A stretch of DNA of 11,413 nt, taken from an uncultured Deinococcales bacterium. GTDB taxonomy: Bacteria; Deinococcota; Deinococci; Deinococcales; JAAFIG01. Made by a program: the position numbers and the translations under genes. This document shows, in pieces, positions 1-11,412 of the stretch (position 1 is the first letter of the stretch; each line of letters opens with the position of its first letter). The notes below the pieces were generated by a model. That model worked only from the letters and a program-made list of their open reading frames with translations, searched no databases and was not told the DNA's origin. Where the stretch lies: positions 1 through 11,413 of the forward strand of contig CAXTTL010000156.1 in the NCBI GenBank assembly GCA_964247135.1, given 5' to 3'.

Positions 1-3000
1 CCCTTTGATCTCGAGCTTGTTGTTCTCGAGTTTGCCGATCAGTTGTTTGGCGTTCAAACGCACCCCAGCCAGCCTGCCCTTGAAGTTTTCGACGTTCAGC
101 ACCGCGTCGGGTTTACCGTACTCGCCTTTCAGCTCGAGGTTGAGCGTGCCGTTGGCTTCCGGGTTCAAGCCGCGCAAGGTCGGCAAAAGGTCGAGCACCG
201 GCGTGAAGCTGGTGTTGGAAAAGCCCAGTTTCAAGTTGACCAGGTTTTTGCTGTAACGCCCCGAACCCAGCCATTCACCACCGTTTTTGGACTTTAAATG
301 CAAACTGTCCAACTCGAGGTTGCCCTTGTTAAAGACCGCACTCGCCGCGCCAATCAGGGCGTCTTGCCCCTCGCCGATCTCGAGCTTTTCAAAAGAGGCT
401 TTGACACTGCCCAAAAGCGGGTTTTTGACTGGAATATCGTAACGGGCGACTCCAGTCACCAATGCCGTGCCTGGCAATGCGCCGAAGACCGAACCCAAGA
501 GCGCATGAAATGGGGCGTTGCGCAAATCCAAATTGCCGGTGATGTTCTCGCCGTCGTAAGAACCTTGAAAGTCCGAATCGCCGTAAGAATTGAGCTTGAG
601 CGCCGAATCGGTTTCGCTCTGGTTGGGTTGCCTGCTGCTGCCGATCGTACCTTTAAAACGGATGCTCGAGTCTGCCGCCGAACCCGAAACTTGCAAGCGC
701 ACGTGGGTTTCGCCCACCGCGTTGTCGGTGGTGCTGGGCAAGGTCAAATCTGGAATACTGACCACAAAAGTCGTGATGCCGTCCACGATTTGCAAACCGC
801 CATATATTCGTCCTTTGGCGTTCGGCGCAATCCCGTGAACCACCGCGATTTCCTCGAGTTTAACCGTGTCAAGGCTGGCGGTGATCGAGTACGGGTTGCT
901 GTCTGGCGCACTGTGGGTGTACGCCTCGAGCGCGGGCAGCAGGTTTGAAATCCCGCCGCTGCCTTCAAATCTGGCTTTGCCGCCAAGGGTTTGGGCGGTT
1001 CCGCTGGCGGTAAATGAATCCTGGTTTAAGACAATGGTCGCAGTCGTGACAGCGCTCAGTCCGCTGGCTTCGATGGGAAAAGCTTGTGCCAAAAGCTTGC
1101 CCTGAATGCCTTTGGAATCCAGTGTGATCTGCCCCTGAATCTTGCCCTTGTTGTTTTTGCCGTTCAAATCAAGTTTCAAATCTCCCTGCCACAAGTCATG
1201 CTCGAGTTGAAACTGTCCTTTGGCGGTGCCTGGCGTTCCGGCGTAATCGAGCGCAATCTGGGCGGGTTTGTTGTTTTCGCTGGCGAACAGGGCGCTGCCT
1301 GTGCCGTCAATTTGCCAGCCCAAAGCCGCGATCTCGAATGGCGTTTTGACGTTCGACCAGCTCGCCTTGGCTGTGCCCGCCAGCAGCGTTTTGCCGCTTT
1401 GCAATTCGAGGTTCGCGTCCAAACTCAGGCTGCCGCCGTAACCCTCGAGCTGTAAAGCCGCCAGGTCGAGTTTGGGCATTTTGCCGATTAATTCGGCATT
1501 CTCGAGCGTAAATTGACCAGTGTTTGTACCATCTTGAAGCTCGAGCGTGGCGCGAAGATCGTTCAGCAAGTCGCTGCCCCCGAGTGCGATATTTGCTTTG
1601 GCGTTCAACTTTCCCTGAGTTGCCTCGAGAAGCGCTTTGGGTTGTGCCAGTGTGCCCGAAGGCGAGAGCTTGATGGTCGTGGCGCGTTCCTGGTACTGAA
1701 TCGTTCCTGAAAGATTGCCTTTGGCGTCCAGTGCAATTGCACCCGTGGTCTGAACACCGCCCAGGTTTGCGCCATTCGGGTCTGGGTTGAGTTTGGATTC
1801 AAGCTTGATCTCGAGCGGCTGAAGATTGGCTGTCAATCCGAGACGCATTCCAAATGCATAGACATCGCCCTCGAGTTTTGGCGCGTCGAATGCGCCAGAA
1901 AGTTGCAGGCTGGCAACGCCCGAGTTTTCGGCTTCGATACCGTACAAACTTTGCTTGGGCAAACCGTCCAGGGCAATCAGACCCGTCCAACCTTTAGCGC
2001 TGTTGGCACTGGCGTTGCCCTTGGCGCTGATGCCGTTGCTGCTGGCGTTCACGTCCAAATTGAGGTTGTCTTTGGTGTAACGCCCACCAATTTCGCCAGT
2101 TGCAATACCGCTCAAAACACCAGTGAATCCCAGGTCGAGTGCAGGTGAGGTGATGCCGCTCGAGTTGAGTTTGAGCTTTTGCCCAGATGCCACAAGCTCG
2201 AGGTTGGTGATGCCGGCATTTTTTCCGTCCCAGACAATTTCGCCGCCCTCAAACAAGGCTTTGCTCGCCAGTTTCTCGGGCGTCCAATTGAGAAAAAGTT
2301 TCATGTCTGGCGCGGTGATGCTCGAGAATTTTGGCTGGGTTAAATTGCCCGTAAAATTAAAGCTGGGTTTAAAGATCGAGCCGCTTACAGTCGCATTTCC
2401 AGTGGCACGACCCGCCGCCGACTCGAGCAGGGATTTCAAGTCAAGCCCAAGCGTTAAATTGCCCGAGAGCTTGGGATTGAAACGGTTTTCGCTGGCTTCG
2501 AGTTTAATGCTGCCAAGTGCGGCGTTCTCGAGTTTGATTTGATACTGACCGTCGCCCGTCCCGCGCAAATTGATGCTCGAGATTGAGTCTGGTAAACCTG
2601 AAAGTCGCAAGTCGGCATTGCCTTGAAGGTTTGGATAACTCCCTGCGAGCGCACCGTCAAATTCCACACCGTACACTTTGGCTTGTCCAGCCACAGCAAT
2701 TTTAGGGGTCGTCATCACGTCTCGAGCGCTGAGTTTAAGTTTGCCGCTGGCGCTGCCCGAGAATGTCGCGTCCGCCTCGAGTTGCGGATTCAGCAATTTG
2801 CCACTGACGCCAACCAGCGCACTGGCAGTCCAATCGTCTTGGCTGCCAGGACGGAATTTCTCGAGCGTTAAATCACCCAGCACATCTGGGTTGCTGGCGT
2901 CCCCAAAGAGTTTTGCCGCGCCGCCCGCCGTGCCTTGCACCCCAAAAGACTCGAGGTTGATGTTTGTCAGTTTCGCGTTGATGCCGTCCGATTTCAGGCT

Positions 3001-6000
3001 GGAGTCAATCGAACCAATCAAACTGAGGTCGCCGCCCAGAAGCTTAGCGTTTAAATTGGTGGTGGCTCTGTTGGCTTCGTATTGTGCATTGCCAACCAGT
3101 GACACCTCCCCGATTTGCTCGAGCTTGCCGGTGGCTTGAAAGTCACTCAAATTCGCTTGAATACCCTGTCCCGCGTCGCTGGCGGTTAGTAACCCCGATA
3201 CCTCGAGCGTGCCAAGGTTGACGGGCAGCAGCGGCTCGAGTTGAACTTGTTTGAAATTTCCACTCGCCTGCCACTTGCCGCCTGTTAAATCGGCGCTGAC
3301 CTGAATTTTTTCACCCTCGAGTTTGGCTTTTGCCGCACCGTTGTCGTAACTGGCAATCAGGTTGGCGTCCAAATCACCGGCGACATCATCGAGTTTGCCC
3401 GTCAGGTTCACGAATGGGCTTGTCCAATTCCCGTGCGCCTCGCCGTTTGCGGTCAGTGTCAATTGCCCAGGTTTATGCCACAACGCGCCAACATCAAAGC
3501 GTTCAAGCTCGAGTGTGGCATTCAAATCTTGGGTGATGTTTCCTGGCAGCACGGCATTCACGCGCCCACCCTGCCAATTCAGCGCCAGTGCCAGATCGTT
3601 GTGCCCAATTAACTCGAGTTTGGCAGGCTTACCGAGCAAATCACCGCTCGAATTGAGGTTGCCACCAAAACCCATATTCTTTGACCATGACAGCGTGCCA
3701 TCAAGCTCGAGGGTGCTATCCTGGTACATGGCTTTGGCTTGTTTCAGGCGCAAGTTGACTTGCTCGAGTCCATCCAAACTTCCCTCGAGCACGCCGAGCA
3801 CTTGATCGCCGCTGATCGCAACATTGAAGCGCTTGCCGTCAAATCCCGCCTCGAGTTTCGTGCCTGGGGCAATCAAACCAAAGCTTGCCGTACCGAGAAC
3901 TGCGGTGGCTGAGACGTCTGGATGCTCAAACGTACCCGTCGCGCCGCCCGAAAATTTGGCGGGCGCAAAGTCAAAACTCGAGTCGCCCGTGAAATTGGCT
4001 TTCAAGTTTGGGTACAAGCTGCCGTTTACTTCGGCAGTTGCGTTTTGATACTCGAGCTTGAGTTGCTGCGCCTCGAGTTGCGCGTTGTGATATTGCAGCG
4101 TTCCGCCGAGCTTCACGCCCTCGATGGTGCCGCTCAGGTTGTGCGCTGTGACCTCCAGGTTTTGAAACTCGAGGTCGCTTTGCAGATTGCCTTCAAGTTT
4201 TTGCCCGAGAGTGTCTTGCAATCCCGCCAAACTCGAGATTCCAATATGCCCCGTACCATGCACACCGCTCGAGTTGAGTTCGGCTGTGGCATTCAGATTT
4301 GCCGCATCCCAGGCTGCTTTGGCAGTGATTTGCGAGCCAATTAAACTCGCCTCGAGTTTGGTGATTTTTTTCAGCAACGTTCCCTCAGCATTCAGTCTCA
4401 GGTTTCTCGAGTGTTCACGCACATCGCCTGTGATTGCCCCGCGCAAACCATCGACCGTCAACTCGGCGTTGGCTTGTGGGTACAATCCACCCGAAATCGC
4501 AAACGTGTATTTCCCTGGCAGCACACCCTCGAGTTGCGCGTTCAACTGCCCAGCCTCGATCTTCGCAGTACCATCGGCGGAAACATCAAAGGCTTTTAAT
4601 CGCTCGAGTTTTAGAGCCATTGAACCCGCCTCGAGTTTGAAATCTGGGATATTAAGGCTGCCAGTCACCCGACCGCTCGCAGAAACGCCCACAATGCGCA
4701 GCAGGCGCAAATCCAGATCGAGTTGATCGGCGCTCAAACCAGCATTACCAATTTGAAAATCGCTGCTCGAGGTTGCCCCCAACCCTGCATTGCCATTCAG
4801 CGACCAAGTTTGACCCTCGAGTGTGGCTTGGGCGTTCAGTCGCACCGCATCGCCGTCGACTTTGGCATTGACGCTCTCTAAAGTTGCCTTGACCTCGAGT
4901 TGCTCTCCCAGCTTGCCGCTGGCATCAAAATTCAGTCGTCCTGGTTGAACCGTTTTTGCAATGTTTTCAGGCAATGCCAGTGCCGTACCCGTCAAATCCA
5001 GATCGCCTTTTGCCGTAAATTCGCGCAGGTTGGCGGTGGCGTTCAAGTTCAGAACACCCTTGGACTCGAGCCTCAGGTTTGGATCGGTTAACCCTCCCGA
5101 GACTTGCATATCAGCCGTTGCACCCTGCCCCCAAGCCGAATACGGCAAGCGCAAACCGCCGTTCCAACGCTCGCCGTCAAACACCAAGGCATCCGTCCCT
5201 CGGGTGATGCGAATGCCCAGCGCTTGACCCAGCGAAGCCGAGAATTTCAGTTCGGCTGGCTCGAGGCTGACCGTTCCACCTGGTACGCTTTGTGAATAAT
5301 TCAAAATCCGAAGTGTTCCCTCGGTTTCGAGGAACTGCCCAGATTTCGCACCCAGTTCAAAACTCGAGATGGCGGCGAGTTCGATTGGGTAGTTTGATTT
5401 TTCAGATTGGACTGAGAGTTTTGACACCTCGAGCGGAAATTTCCAACTTGCAGCCTTCAACGATAGCGGCAAAGCTCCGCCGAGGGTGGCGTTAAACGAA
5501 CCATCAGGCAACCAATTGGCTTTGATCGGAAAGCCAGAAACCTCAGAACTCAGCGCCCCATTCAAATGCTTATTCTCGAGTTTCAGCCGTCCACTGACCA
5601 GACTTGATGTACCCGAGAACAACGACAAATTTAATTTCTCGAGCGTCACCTCACCCGTCATGCTCGAGTCAAACAAAACCTTGCCCGTGCCGCCTTGGGC
5701 ATCTTGCAGGTTCGCGGTTGCATTCCAAGTTTTCAGGTTGCCGCGCACCCGAGCGTCCAGATTGATGGCAGTCTCAGCCGCTCCCAAATTGGCACTGACG
5801 CCCGCATTGAACTCGAGTTTTGGCAGGCTGACCAAACCGTTCAGATTCACCAGCGTCTCGAGTTGCTTGGGCAAAATCGTGCCAGCGAAAGCCGCCAAAA
5901 ATCCGCTCGGCGCTTTGCCAGTCACATTTAAAGCACTCCAAGGTCCGTTCGTCTCGAGTTTCCAAACTTCAGATTTTGGTGATCTTCCGCTCGAAACAGA

Positions 6001-9000
6001 TTGAACTTGTCCGCGCCAAGCCGAATCCATGATGTGCTCGAGGTTGAGTCCGAGCGTGGCATTGAGTTTGCTTTCAAAAACCTGTCCTTGAACCGTGCCA
6101 TTCAGACCACCCACAAAACCCGAGTCGAGGTTCGCGCCGTTCAATTTGGCGCTGGCTTGAAATGTTTGCGCTTGCAGGGCATCGCCAGCCAAAGCACCCG
6201 CACCGCTCGAGGCTTGAAGCGTGCCGTTCAAAGTTTTCCCCTGCACCTCGAAGCTGGCTTGCAGTTTCTCGAGTTTGATGTTCGCGCTTTTATCGCTCGG
6301 GGTTTTTTTGACAAGAATATTCGCAGGGTTTTTCTGGATTCTCGAGACCATTTGTTTGGTTCTTGTAGGGGTGAACCTTGTGTTCACCCTGCGCAACGAG
6401 TCACTTTGAAAGTTCCCCGAAAACGTGTTGGTCGTTTTTGTTTTCAAACCCGAGCCTAAATTGAATTCTTTCAAGAACGCATTGAAATCCTTCGTATCTC
6501 CGTTTGCACTGTCCGAATCGAGTTTGACCGAAATCTTGTTCCCCTCGAGTTGTCCTGAACTTTTAAAGCTTGCAAGGCTGACGCTCGAGCCGTTCCGCAC
6601 CGCTTGCGCCGTTGCGCCATCGAGTGAGCCTAAAACTTTTTGACCGATCAAATCCGCATTTGCCCTAAATTGCTCGAGCTTAAAATCTGCATTGTTCCAA
6701 TGTCCCGAACCCATTTTGGCGTTCAGTTGTCCACTGATATTTTTGTCTTCCAAAGTCGCATCGGCATTAAAATCTTGCAACTCGAGATTCGTGTCTTTCC
6801 AAGTTCCGCTGCCCGTTTGCGCCTCAAGTGTGCCCTTTGTGTTGTTGCCGAACTTTTCGGCATTCAAGGTCAATTTTCCAAGTTTGGCAGAGACATCTTT
6901 CCACCTTCCATCGCCCGATGCCGCCTCGAGCGTTCCATGAAGTTCCTGTCCAAGCATTGCGCCACTCAGCTTGAACTGCTCGAGTATCGCCGTGGCATCT
7001 TGGTAACTTCCAGTCCCTCGCAAGCCGTTGATATCTCCAGTCAACTGACCATCTTTAATTTGGGCATTGAGTTTAAACTGCTCGAGTTTGGCACTTGCCT
7101 CTTGGTAACTGCCAGAGCCTTGTTGCGCCTCGAGTTTGGCATTCAGGTTGTTGTCAATCCAACTGCCCTCAGCTTTGAACTGACTCAAGTCAACAGTGGC
7201 TTTTTGGTATGCGCCCACTCCCCGGTTCGCCTCGAGCGTGGCAAAAATCTGCTGGTTCAAAAACTTTCCCTCGAGCTTGAGTTGCTCGAGTTTGGCATTG
7301 GCGTCTTTGGATGTTCCCGATGCCGTTGCGGCTTGCAGTGTGCCGCTGAGTTGTTGATTAATCCAATTGCCCGCAAATTTGACCTGCTCGAGGTTGGCGC
7401 TGATGTCTTTCCAAGTTCCGTTTGCCCCTTGCGCGGTCAGTGCACCAACGATGGCGTTCCCGTTCAGGTTGGCATTCAGTTTCAAATCCTGAAAATTTCC
7501 AGTTGCGCCTTGATACGTTCCCGAAGCTTGAAGGGCTTCAAGGTCACCCGCAAAAATTTTGTTCTCGAGCTTGCCATTAAACGTAAACTGCTCGAGTTTG
7601 CCTTTGTCGTTCTGGTACGCGCCCGTGGCTCGAGTTCCCGTCAGGTTACCGGTGATGATGTTGTCTCTCAGTTTGGCATTCAGTACCACTTGCTCGAGAT
7701 TCGCATTGGCATCTTTACGGTAAGTTCCCGAAGCGGCAGCCGATGTCAGTTTGCCTTGAATCACGCCATCATCGCTGCTGGCTTCGAGCCTCAACGCGTT
7801 CAAATTGGCGCTCAGCTCTTGCCAAGTGCCATTTGCTTTCCCCGTCTCGAGTTTGCCCGAAAATTGATTGCCTTCCATTGCGCCAGAAAACGCAAATTTT
7901 GCCAGGTTTGCACTGGCGTCCTGATACTGACCCGAAGCCCGCGAAGCTGTCGCGTCGGCACTCAGGCGTTGATGCTCGAGTTTGGCATTCAGGTTGAATT
8001 GATCAAGGTTCGCTTTGATTTTTTGCCAACCACCGCTGGCATGGCTGGCTTGGAGGTAGGCTTGATATTGTGAGGCTTGCTTGTTGGCTTTCAGTTTAAA
8101 ATGCTCGAGTTTGAATTCTTGACCTGCATACACGCCTTGCACCAGACTTCCCAGCACATTGCCACGCAGGCTGGCGTCTTCAAATTTTTTCGACGCCGCA
8201 CCTGTGAAATCCAGATTTCCCTCGAGCATTTCGGCGCTGAAAGTATCCTGTCCCAAGTTGCCAGAAAGGCTTTCAGTCTTAAATTTTTCAAGGCTGGCAT
8301 TGCCATTTTTCAGGTTGTACCGACCGTTCAACTCGAGTTTTGAAACCCCAAATTGATCTGTCTCTTTTATAGCATTGGCGCTTCCAAGTACGGCTTGGAT
8401 TTGCAATTGGTCATTCTCGAGTTGACCTTTTGCCACCACCTGCGAGGCTTCTAGCTGATAGCCTTCAAACCGTCCTGAAAGCGCTTGGCTTTGAACCGCA
8501 AAACCCAAGTTGTTACCGCTCGAGTTGATGTTGGCGGTCGTGTTCTCGAGGGTGAACGGGTGCTTTTGATAGCTTCCAACCGCGCTCGAGATTTGAAGAT
8601 CGGTTTTGAGTTTGAGTGGCTTTCCAAGTACAAGATCAAAATTGTTCGCCGCGAGTGTTTTGGTTTCAACCTGCCAATCCTTGCCCGTCGCCGTGAGCGT
8701 TCCAGTGTTCAAATTTCCGCTGATGCTCGAGCCAACCCGAGCGATATTGGCGCTTAGGTTTTGAGTCTTTGCCGTGATGCCCTCGAGTGTCCCATCCAAA
8801 CTTTGCGCTTTGATTTTCGCCTCGAAATTGGCAGTGGTTAGCTTGTTGGGATTGGTTGTGTTCAGATCGCCCGTTAGCTCGAGATTCGTGACATTGACTG
8901 GATTGTTCTGCACGGTCACGCTGCCCGTTTGAACCTTGGCAGAAACCTCGAGTTTGCCATTTTTGGGTTGCGCACTGGCGTTGATGTTTTGCAGGTCAAA

Positions 9001-11412
9001 CGCCGTTCCCGCCAGTTTGCCAACCAAAGTGATCGCCGTTAAGTTGCTGCGAAGTTGCCCATCACTTTTGGCGTTCACAACCAAACTCGAGGCTTTCAAG
9101 CGTTGCCCTTGGATATCGGCGTCGAGCGTTGAGGCGTTCAGGATGACATCAAAGTTCTGAGGACTGACAAACGTGGCTCGAGCCGTCAGGTTGTTGGCTT
9201 GCAATTTTTGCCCTTGCACGTTCGCATCCACACTTTGCGCACTGGCATCGAGCTTGATTTTTGATCCAACAACCGAACCCTTCGCCTTCAACGCCACGGC
9301 ATTCACACGTTGATTTTGGAATTCTCCCTCGAGCTTGTCGGCGCTGACGTCAAAGTTGATGCCCGCTTTGCCGCTGGAAACTTGTCCAACCGAATTCAGA
9401 ATCGTAATCGGTTTGTTCTGGTATCGTGCCGAGAACGAACCGCGCCAATTCGCATTTAAATCTCGAGTGGCAAGGTTGTATGCTCCAGTTTGAATCTCGA
9501 GTTTGCCGACCGTACCGCTTATGCTCACGCGGTTTTGTTTGAAAGTTCCGTTCAATGCGATCTGATCTGGATTCCAATCCAAACCAAGTTTTTTGATTTC
9601 CGCGCCCAAACCGAGTCGCTCGAGTTCGGGTTTGCTGGGCAATGTGCCAAACGCTTTGAACGTCAGGTTGTCGATTTGACCGTTGACCGCAGCGCGAACC
9701 GAGCCATAGGTCAAGAATGCGTCGATTGTTGGGAAAACCTGTCCGCTAACGGTTGCACCTTTCAAAAGCGAATTGATGACTTTGGCATTGGTGCTGACCC
9801 GATTGTTCTTGACGCTGACCTCCGCCAGAATCGGGATTCCGAACGCTTTTGCCGTCACTTTCGCCGTGCCGTTGGTGTTGACAAACTCGAGTTTTGCCAC
9901 ACCAGAAATTTGCCCTTGCGAGGATTTTGGCAGCAGCGCATCGAGGGCACTCAGGTTCACCTCACCGCTCGAGTTCAGCGTGCCGTTCTCAAATTTCAAC
10001 CCGAGTTTTCGCCCGCCCGCCGTGAAAATGCTGCCGCCCGCCATCAGGCTCGAGCCGAGGTTGGCGTACACGTTGCCGCTTAAAACGTCTGGGTAACTCG
10101 AGATGCTGGCGGTGGTTGAAAGCTTGAACGGGGCAAGTTGCAATTTGCCAGTTGCCAGTGCCATCACGGTTTTTCCTGGCAACGGCGAATAGCTTAGGTT
10201 TCCGTCGAGCGCAATGTTTTTGCCTTGTCCGGTTGCACGAATTAGCCCATAATCGGTCTTGGCATTTAATTTTCCCAACAGGTCGCCGTTGAACAAATAC
10301 GTCGCATCGCCCGAAAGTTTGGCTTGCTGTCCCGAATATTTCACCAACCAGTTGCGCGGTTTGATGCGCACGCGGTCGGCTTGCAAGAAAGCCTCGAGCT
10401 TGTCCGCGCTCCAGTAGCCATTGAGTTGCTTTCCAACCTCGAGCGTGAACGGTCCATCGGCATCCTCGAGCGTTGCGCCTTGGTACGTTAGACCGGTCGC
10501 TTTTAAGTTACCCGTCAGCACGCCGTTCGCACCTTGCAAACGGTAATTTGCACTGGCACTGACCACGCCTGCCGGTTCGAGTTGCAGGTTTTTGAGGCTG
10601 ACCTCCCCGCGCTCGAGGTCGCCAGTCCAGGCAAATTCGCCAAGTTGAGCCGTGCCCGAAAGTTTTCCATCTTTGACCTTTAAGGCAAATTCTCCTGGAA
10701 AACTCGAGGGTTTGACGCCAGGAATTTTGATTGAATTTTGTTTGGTGTCGCCAGTGATGCGAATGTCGGTACTCACGCCGCCGAGTTTGAAGCTTCCTGA
10801 AATCAAATTTTTAAATGGGATCGAAACCTGGAGCTTGTTAAAATCTCCAGTGCCAGCAATGGTTTTTCCGTTTTGCAATACGCCGCTCGCCTGGGCTTGA
10901 CCGTTCAAGATTTTGGTCTTGATGTTGTAAGCCAGATCATCGCCCTTTAAGCTCAGTAAGCCCAGCGCCTCGAGCGGTGCGCCCAAAACCTTCTTGCCCG
11001 TTACGCTGGCGTTGATGGTTGCCAGATTCTCGAGCAGTTTGAAATCGAGCTTCGCTTTGGCAGCCACGGGTGCATCCAAAAATCTCGACTTGGATTGAAG
11101 ATTTGCCGTGAGCGCATCTCCTGGGCTGTTGAACGCCCAATCACCCGCGATCTTCTCGAGCGGAAATTCGAGCACGCGCCCAGTTCCAGCAATTTTTCCT
11201 GAAAATTTGAGCTTTTCCCAACCGCCACCCGAGACGGTCACGCGCACCCTACCCGAGGCTGGCAAGTCCGCCTTAAAGGCAATTAAGGCGGGTTTAATTT
11301 TGGGTTCCGCCCAACCCGTCACGTCAATGTTCTCTTTTTTAAATGCCGTGTTCACGTTGATCTTCAACTCGAGCGGACCCTCGAGCGCCGTGCCCCTAAG
11401 CTGCCCAGAAAT
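1..11412 (-). CDS. tamB: Giant TamB/AsmA-like (repeating beta-groove, bridge-like lipid transfer) envelope protein; internal fragment of 3804 codons, open at both window edges
   Basis: No TTA/CTA/TCA triplet (minus-strand stop) found in + frame 1 across the whole window by manual reading. The translation begins ISGQLRGTALEGPLELKINVNTAFKKENIDVTGWAEPKIKP and ends ...NAPFHALLGSVFGALPGTALVTGVARYDIPVKNPLLGSVKASFEKLEIGEGQDALIGAASAVFNKGNLELDSLHLKSKNGGEWLGSGRYSKNLVNLKLGFSNTSFTPVLDLLPTLRGLNPEANGTLNLELKGEYGKPDAVLNVENFKGRLAGVRLNAKQLIGKLENNKLEIKG. It has alternating hydrophobic/polar beta-strands throughout and recurring AsmA/TamB-type motifs: GEYGKPDA (~103-126), SGTLAQPKA (~1633-1659), SGAFDAPKLEG (~1867-1899), SGSIFKPSF (~2359-2385), SGKLLNPQL (~2779-2805), GDASNPDV (~2881-2904), GNWTSPFV (~3409-3432), GTFEHPDV (~3913-3936), SGGLTDPNL (~5074-5100). 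The last ~250 aa resemble, from memory, the region preceding DUF490 in Deinococcus TamB proteins. The ORF itself is near certain; the family call is pattern recognition without a database search. Confidence 0.85.
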   Translation of the reverse strand, partial: MSGQLRGTALEGPLELKINVNTAFKKENIDVTGWAEPKIKPALIAFKADLPASGRVRVTVSGGGWEKLKFSGKIAGTGRVLEFPLEKIAGDWAFNSPGDALTANLQSKSRFLDAPVAAKAKLDFKLLENLATINASVTGKKVLGAPLEALGLLSLKGDDLAYNIKTKILNGQAQASGVLQNGKTIAGTGDFNKLQVSIPFKNLISGSFKLGGVSTDIRITGDTKQNSIKIPGVKPSSFPGEFALKVKDGKLSGTAQLGEFAWTGDLERGEVSLKNLQLEPAGVVSASANYRLQGANGVLTGNLKATGLTYQGATLEDADGPFTLEVGKQLNGYWSADKLEAFLQADRVRIKPRNWLVKYSGQQAKLSGDATYLFNGDLLGKLNAKTDYGLIRATGQGKNIALDGNLSYSPLPGKTVMALATGKLQLAPFKLSTTASISSYPDVLSGNVYANLGSSLMAGGSIFTAGGRKLGLKFENGTLNSSGEVNLSALDALLPKSSQGQISGVAKLEFVNTNGTAKVTAKAFGIPILAEVSVKNNRVSTNAKVINSLLKGATVSGQVFPTIDAFLTYGSVRAAVNGQIDNLTFKAFGTLPSKPELERLGLGAEIKKLGLDWNPDQIALNGTFKQNRVSISGTVGKLEIQTGAYNLATRDLNANWRGSFSARYQNKPITILNSVGQVSSGKAGINFDVSADKLEGEFQNQRVNAVALKAKGSVVGSKIKLDASAQSVDANVQGQKLQANNLTARATFVSPQNFDVILNASTLDADIQGQRLKASSLVVNAKSDGQLRSNLTAITLVGKLAGTAFDLQNINASAQPKNGKLEVSAKVQTGSVTVQNNPVNVTNLELTGDLNTTNPNKLTTANFEAKIKAQSLDGTLEGITAKTQNLSANIARVGSSISGNLNTGTLTATGKDWQVETKTLAANNFDLVLGKPLKLKTDLQISSAVGSYQKHPFTLENTTANINSSGNNLGFAVQSQALSGRFEGYQLEASQVVAKGQLENDQLQIQAVLGSANAIKETDQFGVSKLELNGRYNLKNGNASLEKFKTESLSGNLGQDTFSAEMLEGNLDFTGAASKKFEDASLRGNVLGSLVQGVYAGQEFKLEHFKLKANKQASQYQAYLQASHASGGWQKIKANLDQFNLNAKLEHQRLSADATASRASGQYQDASANLAKFAFSGAMEGNQFSGKLETGKANGTWQELSANLNALRLEASSDDGVIQGKLTSAAASGTYRKDANANLEQVVLNAKLRDNIITGNLTGTRATGAYQNDKGKLEQFTFNGKLENKIFAGDLEALQASGTYQGATGNFQDLKLNANLNGNAIVGALTAQGANGTWKDISANLEQVKFAGNWINQQLSGTLQAATASGTSKDANAKLEQLKLEGKFLNQQIFATLEANRGVGAYQKATVDLSQFKAEGSWIDNNLNAKLEAQQGSGSYQEASAKLEQFKLNAQIKDGQLTGDINGLRGTGSYQDATAILEQFKLSGAMLGQELHGTLEAASGDGRWKDVSAKLGKLTLNAEKFGNNTKGTLEAQTGSGTWKDTNLELQDFNADATLEDKNISGQLNAKMGSGHWNNADFKLEQFRANADLIGQKVLGSLDGATAQAVRNGSSVSLASFKSSGQLEGNKISVKLDSDSANGDTKDFNAFLKEFNLGSGLKTKTTNTFSGNFQSDSLRRVNTRFTPTRTKQMVSRIQKNPANILVKKTPSDKSANIKLEKLQASFEVQGKTLNGTLQASSGAGALAGDALQAQTFQASAKLNGANLDSGFVGGLNGTVQGQVFESKLNATLGLNLEHIMDSAWRGQVQSVSSGRSPKSEVWKLETNGPWSALNVTGKAPSGFLAAFAGTILPKQLETLVNLNGLVSLPKLEFNAGVSANLGAAETAINLDARVRGNLKTWNATANLQDAQGGTGKVLFDSSMTGEVTLEKLNLSLFSGTSSLVSGRLKLENKHLNGALSSEVSGFPIKANWLPDGSFNATLGGALPLSLKAASWKFPLEVSKLSVQSEKSNYPIELAAISSFELGAKSGQFLETEGTLRILNYSQSVPGGTVSLEPAELKFSASLGQALGIRITRGTDALVFDGERWNGGLRLPYSAWGQGATADMQVSGGLTDPNLRLESKGVLNLNATANLREFTAKGDLDLTGTALALPENIAKTVQPGRLNFDASGKLGEQLEVKATLESVNAKVDGDAVRLNAQATLEGQTWSLNGNAGLGATSSSDFQIGNAGLSADQLDLDLRLLRIVGVSASGRVTGSLNIPDFKLEAGSMALKLERLKAFDVSADGTAKIEAGQLNAQLEGVLPGKYTFAISGGLYPQANAELTVDGLRGAITGDVREHSRNLRLNAEGTLLKKITKLEASLIGSQITAKAAWDAANLNATAELNSSGVHGTGHIGISSLAGLQDTLGQKLEGNLQSDLEFQNLEVTAHNLSGTIEGVKLGGTLQYHNAQLEAQQLKLEYQNATAEVNGSLYPNLKANFTGDSSFDFAPAKFSGGATGTFEHPDVSATAVLGTASFGLIAPGTKLEAGFDGKRFNVAISGDQVLGVLEGSLDGLEQVNLRLKQAKAMYQDSTLELDGTLSWSKNMGFGGNLNSSGDLLGKPAKLELIGHNDLALALNWQGGRVNAVLPGNITQDLNATLELERFDVGALWHKPGQLTLTANGEAHGNWTSPFVNLTGKLDDVAGDLDANLIASYDNGAAKAKLEGEKIQVSADLTGGKWQASGNFKQVQLEPLLPVNLGTLEVSGLLTASDAGQGIQANLSDFQATGKLEQIGEVSLVGNAQYEANRATTNLNAKLLGGDLSLIGSIDSSLKSDGINAKLTNINLESFGVQGTAGGAAKLFGDASNPDVLGDLTLEKFRPGSQDDWTASALVGVSGKLLNPQLEADATFSGSASGKLKLSARDVMTTPKIAVAGQAKVYGVEFDGALAGSYPNLQGNADLRLSGLPDSISSINLRGTGDGQYQIKLENAALGSIKLEASENRFNPKLSGNLTLGLDLKSLLESAAGRATGNATVSGSIFKPSFNFTGNLTQPKFSSITAPDMKLFLNWTPEKLASKALFEGGEIVWDGKNAGITNLELVASGQKLKLNSSGITSPALDLGFTGVLSGIATGEIGGRYTKDNLNLDVNASSNGISAKGNASANSAKGWTGLIALDGLPKQSLYGIEAENSGVASLQLSGAFDAPKLEGDVYAFGMRLGLTANLQPLEIKLESKLNPDPNGANLGGVQTTGAIALDAKGNLSGTIQYQERATTIKLSPSGTLAQPKALLEATQGKLNAKANIALGGSDLLNDLRATLELQDGTNTGQFTLENAELIGKMPKLDLAALQLEGYGGSLSLDANLELQSGKTLLAGTAKASWSNVKTPFEIAALGWQIDGTGSALFASENNKPAQIALDYAGTPGTAKGQFQLEHDLWQGDLKLDLNGKNNKGKIQGQITLDSKGIQGKLLAQAFPIEASGLSAVTTATIVLNQDSFTASGTAQTLGGKARFEGSGGISNLLPALEAYTHSAPDSNPYSITASLDTVKLEEIAVVHGIAPNAKGRIYGGLQIVDGITTFVVSIPDLTLPSTTDNAVGETHVRLQVSGSAADSSIRFKGTIGSSRQPNQSETDSALKLNSYGDSDFQGSYDGENITGNLDLRNAPFHALLGSVFGALPGTALVTGVARYDIPVKNPLLGSVKASFEKLEIGEGQDALIGAASAVFNKGNLELDSLHLKSKNGGEWLGSGRYSKNLVNLKLGFSNTSFTPVLDLLPTLRGLNPEANGTLNLELKGEYGKPDAVLNVENFKGRLAGVRLNAKQLIGKLENNKLEIKG
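6100..6501 (-). repeat. Degenerate C-terminal end of the repeat array (about 3 units), interrupted by a basic segment of about 30 aa
   Basis: Reads GDTKDFNAFLKEFNLGSGLKTKTTNTFSGNFQSDSL, then RRVNTRFTPTRTKQMVSRIQKNPANILVKKTPSDK, then SANIKLEKLQASFEVQGKTLNGTLQASSGA and GALAGDALQAQTFQASAKLNGANLDSGFVGGLN. Confidence 0.65.
6365..6389 (+). repeat. GTAG-type REP-like palindrome located inside the CDS
   Basis: GTAG (6365-6368), then GGGTGAAC (6369-6376), loop CTTGT (6377-6381) and GTTCACCC (6382-6389). This is a perfect 8-bp stem directly preceded by the GTAG tetranucleotide, the architecture of RAYT-associated REP sequences. Only one copy is in the window, so its repetitive nature cannot be confirmed here. 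Confidence 0.6.
6502..8136 (-). repeat. Core coding tandem repeat: 16 units of 34 aa (102 bp; one unit is 35 aa), consensus about G-x-[WY]-[QK]-D-A-S-A-[NK]-L-E-Q-F-K-L-N-[AG]-x-h-x-x-x-x-h-x-G-x-L-x-A-x-x-[AG]-S
   Basis: Translated units include GGWQKIKANLDQFNLNAKLEHQRLSADATASRAS, GQYQDASANLAKFAFSGAMEGNQFSGKLETGKAN, GTWQELSANLNALRLEASSDDGVIQGKLTSAAAS, GTWKDISANLEQVKFAGNWINQQLSGTLQAATAS, GSYQEASAKLEQFKLNAQIKDGQLTGDINGLRGT, GSYQDATAILEQFKLSGAMLGQELHGTLEAASGD and GHWNNADFKLEQFRANADLIGQKVLGSLDGATAQ. The length check holds: 16x102+3 = 1635 bp. A 17-bp exact DNA match (tgtctttccaagttccg) lies at 6792-6808 and 7404-7420, an offset of 612 = 6x102. Confidence 0.93.
8137..9429 (-). repeat. Degenerate N-terminal extension of the same repeat: 12 units of 33-42 aa
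   Basis: Units such as ARYQNKPITILNSVGQVSSGKAGINFDVSADKLE (34), GEFQNQRVNAVALKAKGSVVGSKIKLDASAQSVD (34), GKLAGTAFDLQNINASAQPKNGKLEVSAKVQTGS (34), GSYQKHPFTLENTTANINSSGNNLGFAVQSQALS (34) and GRFEGYQLEASQVVAKGQLENDQLQIQAVLGSAN (34). Longer units appear to carry extra residues in the second turn. The 12 units sum to 431 aa and abut the core array exactly. Confidence 0.75.

Follow-up and report, generated by a model that had tools for sequence, protein, structure and literature searches.

Since the giant TamB-family gene that fills contig CAXTTL010000156.1 of an uncultured Deinococcales bacterium (assembly GCA_964247135.1) carries a long block of tandem units of 34 amino acids (aa) in its middle, the question arises what such an array contributes to a protein that is proposed to bridge the cell envelope. 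We analysed the whole contig (C156), i.e., all 11,413 nucleotides, and refer to it as the window; the assembly amounts to 5.09 Mb in 386 contigs and is 84% complete. A preliminary description of the same DNA had placed about 31 units at nucleotides 6100-9429, which correspond to aa 662-1771 of the encoded frame (P0001), and had regarded them as a candidate modular length extender or periplasmic ruler.

From our point of view, the length-extender reading is well supported, and in its full form, namely that the block is a genus-specific expansion of a hairpin module in the periplasmic sheet of TamB which matches bridge length to envelope width, we consider it rather probable. The bridge would be held by an inner-membrane anchor at one end, with DUF490 at the outer membrane. 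Each unit of 34 residues would add two antiparallel strands of 15 residues, i.e., about 0.96 nm, with no need for a cross-over loop. With about 30 such units, the gain in bridge length would come to 26-30 nm or thereabouts. This expansion would have arisen at a site that is also variable in sister genera and would still be trimmed by the loss of whole units. Its likeliest role would be to keep the length of the bridge equal to the width of the envelope, in step with the stalk of a tether of the SlpA/OmpM type, and envelope width would be the factor that selects this length.

The repeat and the gene that carries it

The 34-aa repeat is real, and its core stands far above shuffled sequence. At lag 34 the core has a mean BLOSUM62 score of 1.29, as opposed to a maximum of -0.25 among 50 shuffles. 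Sliding windows of 102 aa exceed the 95th percentile of 100 whole-protein shuffles at 14 consecutive positions only, starting at aa 1089-1531, and lag 34 is the top lag in all 14. A hidden Markov model (HMM) of the unit recovers exactly 16 units in P0001 and no other at E <= 0.01, and the register is held across 544 residues with zero net indel. The unit consensus is EQFKLNAxLxxxxxxGxLxAxxASGx(W/Y)(Q/K)DAxAxL. Position 27 is aromatic in 75% of 12 units and is followed by Q/K and D, and at eight positions per unit, which form one stripe, 92-100% of 12 units have an apolar residue or Ala/Gly. That the 16 units lack proline and G-x-x-x-x-P motifs had been pointed out before and holds for the entire core (0 Pro in 544 residues, 0 GxxxxP motifs), in which Asn and Gln together make up 17% of the residues (10-11% in the flanks). 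No array is listed by Tandem Repeats Finder at the DNA level in the block, and the core units are 35-61% identical in nucleotides. With an identity of 26-50% between the units and the reference unit, the array is old.

The gene and the parts of the block, all on the minus strand, are as follows:

1..11412, minus strand: internal 3,804 codons (P0001) of the giant TamB-family gene, one stop-free frame open at both ends
6228..9411, minus strand: genus-specific insertion, aa ~668-1728, ~1,060 aa, delimited by MAFFT alignments against four sister-genus genomes
8104..9429, minus strand: decayed portion of the array, aa 662-1103 (442 aa = 13 x 34), recognised by its match to the core-array profile
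6472..8103, minus strand: core array of 16 tandem 34-aa units, aa 1104-1647, in a single register when written in rows of 34
6277..6471, minus strand: basic linker containing Ser, Thr and Pro, aa ~1648-1712, ~65 aa, rich in Ser/Thr/Lys/Arg, following the core
6100..6276, minus strand: aa 1713-1771, with one or two hairpins that resemble degenerate units, leading back into the part shared with the sister genera

The earlier figure of about 31 units turns out to be a fair count, of which 16 are certain and about 14-15, the weaker part, are decayed. The profile of the whole core array scores 34.5 bits on aa 662-1103, a value that none of the 290 scored shuffles reaches (300 were made; maximum 7.2), and four flank pieces of equal length score between -0.6 and 6.2 bits. 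The segment further matches itself off the diagonal (hhalign P 5e-7), and in a congener the core aligns by tblastn with the stretch directly upstream at 26% identity (E 4.4e-4). From these comparisons, aa 662-1103 is judged to be a decayed copy of the same array. The orthologue P0005 carries an indel of 35 aa (+35 aa) inside this portion, which is predicted in a low-confidence model of the block (model 1) to be all-beta with strands of about 15 aa, and its units have mostly lost the aromatic residue. No significant signal was obtained for aa 662-1103 in the lag-34 analysis, nor did hhalign or HMMs of the single unit, built from 16 or 75 units, give one; it is the multi-unit profile alone that picks up the kinship with the core. 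On the other side of the core, the length of the linker varies by 9-43 aa among the orthologues. Behind it, aa 1715-1740 resemble the unit profile (hhalign P 0.0026), and the sister-genus alignment picks up again at aa ~1729.

No part of the P0001 frame is named by Pfam and NCBIfam. The gene is assigned to the TamB family through PF04357 (TamB/DUF490), which lies outside the window on contig C287 of the same assembly, in a frame that represents the C-terminal 490 aa and runs off the end of that contig (48.7 bits, E 8.6e-13; gathering cut-off 22.4). The start of this frame, KGQITTDESF, continues the end of the window, LEIKG, as in the consensus of the full-length orthologues. The ends of C156 and C287 have no k-mers of >=21 nt (at least 21 nucleotides) in common, and we join the two contigs because of the protein continuity with the full-length orthologues. 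Among 5.8 billion proteins there are six relatives, the full-length ones with 4,456-4,519 aa and one cut at 2,154 aa. The five full-length orthologues end in the same C-terminus as C287, and four of the six (P0002, P0003, P0006 and P0007) start, as judged by eye, with a basic stretch and about 20 hydrophobic residues in the manner of an anchor. We estimate the complete protein at ~4,560 residues, of which the window carries the middle 3,804; about 265 N-terminal codons are missing from the assembly.

The family assignment is also of practical relevance. A hmmscan of the full-length orthologue P0002 (4,519 aa) against Pfam omits PF04357, its last 490 residues alone score 48.7 bits, and the precomputed Pfam column holds '-' for all six orthologues. 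Routine annotation can thus fail to name giant proteins of this type.

Distribution, copy number and constraint

The block had been suspected to be a lineage-specific insertion of variable copy number, and both parts of this supposition are borne out. In alignments with the TamB genes of four genomes from sister genera, the ~1,060 aa (residues 927-1990 in the numbering of the full-length orthologue) stand opposite 74, 74, 151 and 176 aa at the same site, and the limits of the insertion nearly coincide with those of the block as originally outlined. Against these short sister-genus segments the unit profile gives no significant match (hhalign P 0.043-0.34). One of them shows, by eye, a G-x-Y-x-G/N motif recurring at a spacing of ~34-42 aa, which, together with the segment lengths of 74-176 aa, hints at a likeness to the unit, homology not being established.

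The core array is found in four of the five other genomes of the genus, the sole miss being an assembly of 980 contigs, and in none of 13 genomes from the other four genera of the family. Nine TamB genes from outside the genus, Deinococcus-type ones among them, contain no unit match and no lag-34 signal. The block matches no Pfam family at E <= 1 besides two chance-level rows, and no NCBIfam entry. Over 1.84 billion representative proteins, the 16-unit profile yields 10 matches at E <= 0.001, three of which are real, namely the orthologue cluster, a cut homologue of 1,805 aa that is 60% identical to P0002, and a fragment of 199 aa; the other seven were dismissed as short partial matches to unrelated repeat proteins. 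Judged by these searches, the unit appears confined to one orthologue group, in line with the notion of an unnamed repeat family.

Within the genus, alignment gaps in the core of 35, 34, 34 and 68 aa leave between 13 and 16 units. Since the most distant orthologue, P0008 (60% identical), retains units that others lack, these indels are losses. The ratio of non-synonymous to synonymous substitution rates (dN/dS) in four pairwise comparisons is 0.18-0.23 for the block, 0.10-0.19 for the flanks and 0.18-0.21 for the core array, and the array is therefore constrained by purifying selection.

Of 364 Deinococcota genomes, 346 contain PF04357, as do 259 of the 263 of high quality, a tally that includes one genome flagged as unpublished. 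The DUF490 frames on uncut contigs, among those listed, mostly measure 3,150-4,300 aa and go down to about 2,700-2,800 aa; in sister genera of the family they have 3,545-4,319 aa. Two of these giant genes are expanded in other ways. The sister-genus TamB of 4,319 aa (L022; G127:C422:1000-15500) has ~590 extra residues opposite residues 2800-3300 of the orthologue and, near aa 1365-1400, two copies of a low-complexity stretch of 18 aa; its genome also has the longest SlpA-like stalk seen (634 aa). In a Deinococcus-type TamB frame of 4,110 aa (L024; G035:C1:2188000-2202000), a segment of 286 aa is present in ~3.3 tandem copies at aa ~531-1482, a position that corresponds approximately to that of the 34-aa array. 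These copies are 95-96% identical and represent a recent triplication, which explains much of the excess length over the congeners.

A separate feature of the gene is the palindrome CTCGAG, which occurs 112 times in the window (about once per 102 bases; expected ~2.8). In 86 cases it stands in frame as Leu-Glu, so that 86 of the 102 Leu-Glu pairs of the protein are encoded in this way. Seven in-frame sites lie at the Leu34-Glu1 junction between units, and the palindrome was considered as a unit-border mark that drives unit loss. We rejected this idea, as the core, with 11.0 sites per kb, is about as dense as the rest of the gene (8.1-10.6) and the single placeable deletion falls mid-unit.

Predicted fold, envelope width and rival explanations

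Two predicted structures bear on the fold. Model 1 covers the entire block from five orthologue sequences; with a mean predicted local distance difference test score (pLDDT) of 44 it was used for secondary structure only, and it is all-beta with strands of 15 residues. The AlphaFold model of eight units (units 5-12, aa 1240-1511), built from the shallow alignment A5, has a pLDDT of 84.1 and a predicted template modelling score (pTM) of 0.75. Its 16 complete strands have 15 residues each, two further strands at the ends are partial, and a turn occurs every 17 residues; all 17 connections are turns of 2-3 residues (one of 3), and there is no loop and no helix. The turns fall on unit positions 11-12 (D/G-N) and 28-29 (Q-D, directly after W/Y27). 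The unit is hence predicted to be a beta-hairpin in a pure antiparallel meander, in agreement with the two strands of ~15 residues and two short turns that had been supposed from the letters. The closed solenoid and the independent globular domains that had been named as contrary outcomes are not seen in this predicted open meander. A beta-solenoid or beta-helix was ruled out on the model's consecutive strands, which run antiparallel and are joined by 2-residue turns, and no solenoid protein occurs among the best 50 matches of either VIA-align list.

Among those best 50 matches per list, the ones with a low root-mean-square deviation (rmsd) are antiparallel sheets that are open and grooved. 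They include the MORN arrays 6t6q (Z 11.2, 2.5 Å over 177 residues) and 6t4r (Z 11.0, 2.7 Å over 178), junctophilin 7rxe (Z 9.8, 2.5 Å over 176), variants of the single-layer sheet of OspA, and components of the lipopolysaccharide bridge, namely the N-terminal jellyroll of LptD (7omm_A; Z 10.6, 3.3 Å over 147 residues) and LptC (Z 7.8). Beta-barrels and ApoB100 also reach Z 8-13, with an rmsd of 8-10 Å, and were taken merely to mean 'long antiparallel sheet'. No periplasmic chain of an AsmA-like protein or TamB is among the best 50 of either list. When the array profile is compared with the sequences of solved structures, the best match is E. coli TamB (9xdc_B), which at E 0.31 is not significant. 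In the features of a protein language model, the core lies nearest to clusters of YdbH-like proteins and TamB (scores 0.77-0.82), which we treat as leads only.

An independent view on length comes from the SlpA-like genes, which encode an S-layer homology (SLH) domain, a coiled coil and a barrel, and in which we define the stalk as the part from the conserved SLH anchor to the start of the barrel. In a congener the stalk has 462 aa and in the genome of the window ~478 aa (counted by hand in a frame that runs off its contig), whereas the sister genus has stalks of 275 and 277 aa. The excess lies entirely in the coiled-coil part and amounts to +186 aa, which as a helix would be 27.6 nm. TamB has gained +929.5 aa over the sister genus, which would correspond to 26.2 nm if every 17 aa span 0.48 nm. 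In this genus (L031, G137:C70:72800-77600, and G000 contig C283 from base 2801), the stalk excess contains Ala/Asp/Gln-rich runs and three short, non-helical-looking Pro/Gly inserts, and the stalk may be segmented rather than a single coiled coil.

This parallel growth can be set against what is described for Deinococcus radiodurans. According to von Kügelgen et al. (2022; PMC9388160), the ~28-nm coiled coil of SlpA equals the distance from the outer membrane to the wall, and the wall fills much of a periplasm of 121 ± 4 nm. The TamB homologue DR_146T, a protein of 4,002 aa, is required for the integrity of the envelope, and Yu et al. (2017; PMC5382914) already suggested that its extra length serves to cross a thicker wall and periplasm. 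As a simple check of scale, 4,002/17 x 0.48 would give 113 nm for this protein, compared with 121 nm for the periplasm. In 11 genomes of 8 genera, TamB frame length is moreover correlated with stalk length, with a Spearman coefficient of 0.79 (p 0.004), one of 0.88 for genus means and a Pearson coefficient of 0.63. One quantitative coincidence and a phylum-wide trend thus speak for the idea that TamB length is matched to the envelope. Of the earlier proposal that length is tuned to envelope thickness, the agreement between stalk (+27.6 nm) and TamB (~26 nm) speaks for the matching, and a strict ruler role, in which TamB would itself set the width, is something we can at present only infer.

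Several points weigh against a lipid-conducting bridge matched to the envelope. The trend mentioned above was obtained from 11 genomes that were picked for their spread of TamB length and are related, not independent, and from frames measured from stop codon to stop codon; two further genomes in which no SlpA-like frame was found are outside the 11. The genus g3 fits poorly, with a stalk longer by 358 aa and a TamB longer by just 737 aa. As for the fold, alignment A5 has 15 rows, all from this genus, 10 of which are paralogous, non-overlapping blocks of the array, and a Foldseek search of the 8-unit model against PDB returned nothing at E <= 0.001 and template modelling scores (TM-scores) of <=0.27. 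The linker behind the core has a pLDDT of 22-39 in model 1 and is mostly without regular structure. The core is also less hydrophobic than the flanks (24% versus 29-31% hydrophobic residues). Moreover, the apolar residues form two stripes, A (F3/L5/A7/L9 with I14/G16/L18/A20, adjoining one turn) and B (A23/G25/W27 with A30/A32/L34, adjoining the other turn), which in a regular hairpin and absent a bulge lie on opposite faces of the sheet. A taco-like sheet that is apolar on one face would not predict such stripes, and the pattern is a real difficulty for a conduit.

We regard a stiff, single-layer sheet of the MORN or OspA kind, which would serve as a mechanical spacer or strut, perhaps across the thick wall, and would carry no lipid, as the main rival, unlikely as it still seems to us. 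It would account for the fact that MORN proteins and junctophilin give the lowest rmsd (2.5-2.9 Å over 176-178 residues) and that OspA variants turn up as well, and it suits a core in which each strand face is half polar, Ala or Gly occupies many of the apolar positions and hydrophobic residues are fewer than in the flanks. What it does not call for is the eight-position stripe, which could give a continuous apolar track for lipid on one face of the array, or the match of LptD, a lipid-bridge jellyroll, to nearly whole strands at Z 10.6; the nearest clusters in the language-model features (YdbH-like and TamB), leads though they are, point the same way.

The two other explanations that we considered concern the wall and the absence of function, and both appear less likely than the spacer. 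The W/Y-Q-D turn, repeated every ~1 nm on one edge, could act as a periodic ladder that binds a wall glycan or another periodic envelope polymer and holds TamB in place inside the thick wall, length being a by-product. The frequent aromatic residue at position 27 with its Q/K and D would make sense on such a ladder, as would the location of the array at ~20-44% of the protein length from the inner-membrane end (orthologue numbering), given how much of the periplasm the D. radiodurans wall occupies (PMC9388160). Yet the Pfam scans show no match to a carbohydrate-binding family, and the decayed upstream units mostly lack the aromatic and are similarly constrained; we think a ladder improbable. 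About equally little weight is given to a neutral runaway duplication that is simply tolerated, in which case the growth of the tether would reflect coincidence or shared ancestry. Other Deinococcota TamB genes have unrelated expansions elsewhere, the near-identical triplication of 286 aa included, so that the protein evidently tolerates insertions; the block also evolves somewhat faster than the termini. On the other hand, dN/dS is ~0.2 in all four comparisons, the register is held over 544 residues, indels occur in whole units only, old units are kept wherever the region is assembled in the genus, and the added lengths of 26 and 27.6 nm agree.

Coming back to the expansion of a hairpin module that keeps pace with the envelope, one could tentatively go further, although we hold this extension to be rather doubtful. 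Two co-evolving yardsticks that are built differently, the SlpA stalk and the number of TamB strands, might set and follow the width of the Deinococcota envelope. The self-sufficient 34-residue module, which would be the smallest groove-extending AsmA-like unit yet seen, might then have been amplified ~30-fold for the same ~27 nm and might still be adjusted hairpin by hairpin, i.e., in steps of ~1 nm.

How envelope machines are fitted to the spacing of the two membranes has been learnt chiefly in E. coli, from changes in the length of Lpp. Where lipid bridges of the AsmA/VPS13 class are concerned, a relation of protein length to gap width has mostly been assumed so far. The present locus offers a natural series of 2 to ~31 putative hairpins at one site across related genera, and of 13 to 16 core units in one genus. 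The conversion is simple, with 34 residues for about 1 nm, and the tether stalk is an independent, internal yardstick in the same genomes; length matching is therefore testable. The repeat would also give engineers a minimal building block for beta-sheet bridges of chosen length.

Comparison with known systems

The overall plan of the orthologues, with an anchor at the N-terminus, DUF490 at the C-terminus and a very long periplasmic part of all-beta structure between them, is that of E. coli TamB, YhdP and YdbH, for which a bridge role is proposed. Compared with E. coli TamB (1,259 aa), the protein of this genus is ~3.6 times as long, and about a quarter of it is a sequence-periodic array of 34-aa hairpins for which there is no Pfam model. 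DR_146T of D. radiodurans is likewise a giant TamB from the same order, giant DUF490 frames being the rule in the phylum; the portion of PMC5382914 available describes its domains and mentions no hairpin repeat or copy-number variation.

In repeating beta-groove (RBG) proteins such as VPS13, ATG2 and BLTP and the AsmA-like proteins, length also grows by added antiparallel strands, with different bridges for different gaps, and the unit is made of five strands and a loop that crosses the groove, as stated in the excerpts of PMC10345924. The unit of the array, in contrast, is predicted to have two strands with 2-residue turns and neither loop nor helix, and it is recognisable in sequence; this difference concerns the array and not its flanks. 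Arrays of MORN repeats (TbMORN1 6t4r, TgMORN1 6t6q, junctophilin 7rxe) share with the model the tandem hairpins in a long, twisted antiparallel sheet and are the closest superpositions. They belong, however, to cytosolic eukaryotic proteins, and the strands of the array are longer (15 residues) and superpose in part. The MORN sequence profile (Pfam PF02493) was not matched in the Pfam scans of the block, so that the likeness is structural only. The Lpt bridge of LptC, LptA and the N-terminal domain of LptD is an envelope-spanning lipid bridge of consecutive antiparallel strands as well. It is of another family, has no sequence match and is assembled from separate proteins rather than from a tandem array in one chain. 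Lastly, the SlpA/OmpM tether is relevant here because the length of its stalk co-varies with that of TamB. Von Kügelgen et al. (2022; PMC9388160) read its length as that of a spacer; in build it differs from the array, being an alpha-helical coiled coil instead of a beta-sheet.

'Very long' exceptions in TamB length are mentioned in an excerpt of PMC4494059. The full-text literature searched, supplements being outside its scope, holds no hairpin repeat in TamB and no study of TamB against tether length in Deinococcota. Overall, the TamB family and the idea that a long TamB serves a thick envelope are known, and as far as this literature goes, a minimal, sequence-periodic hairpin module, its variation in copy number and the parallel growth of the tether are new.

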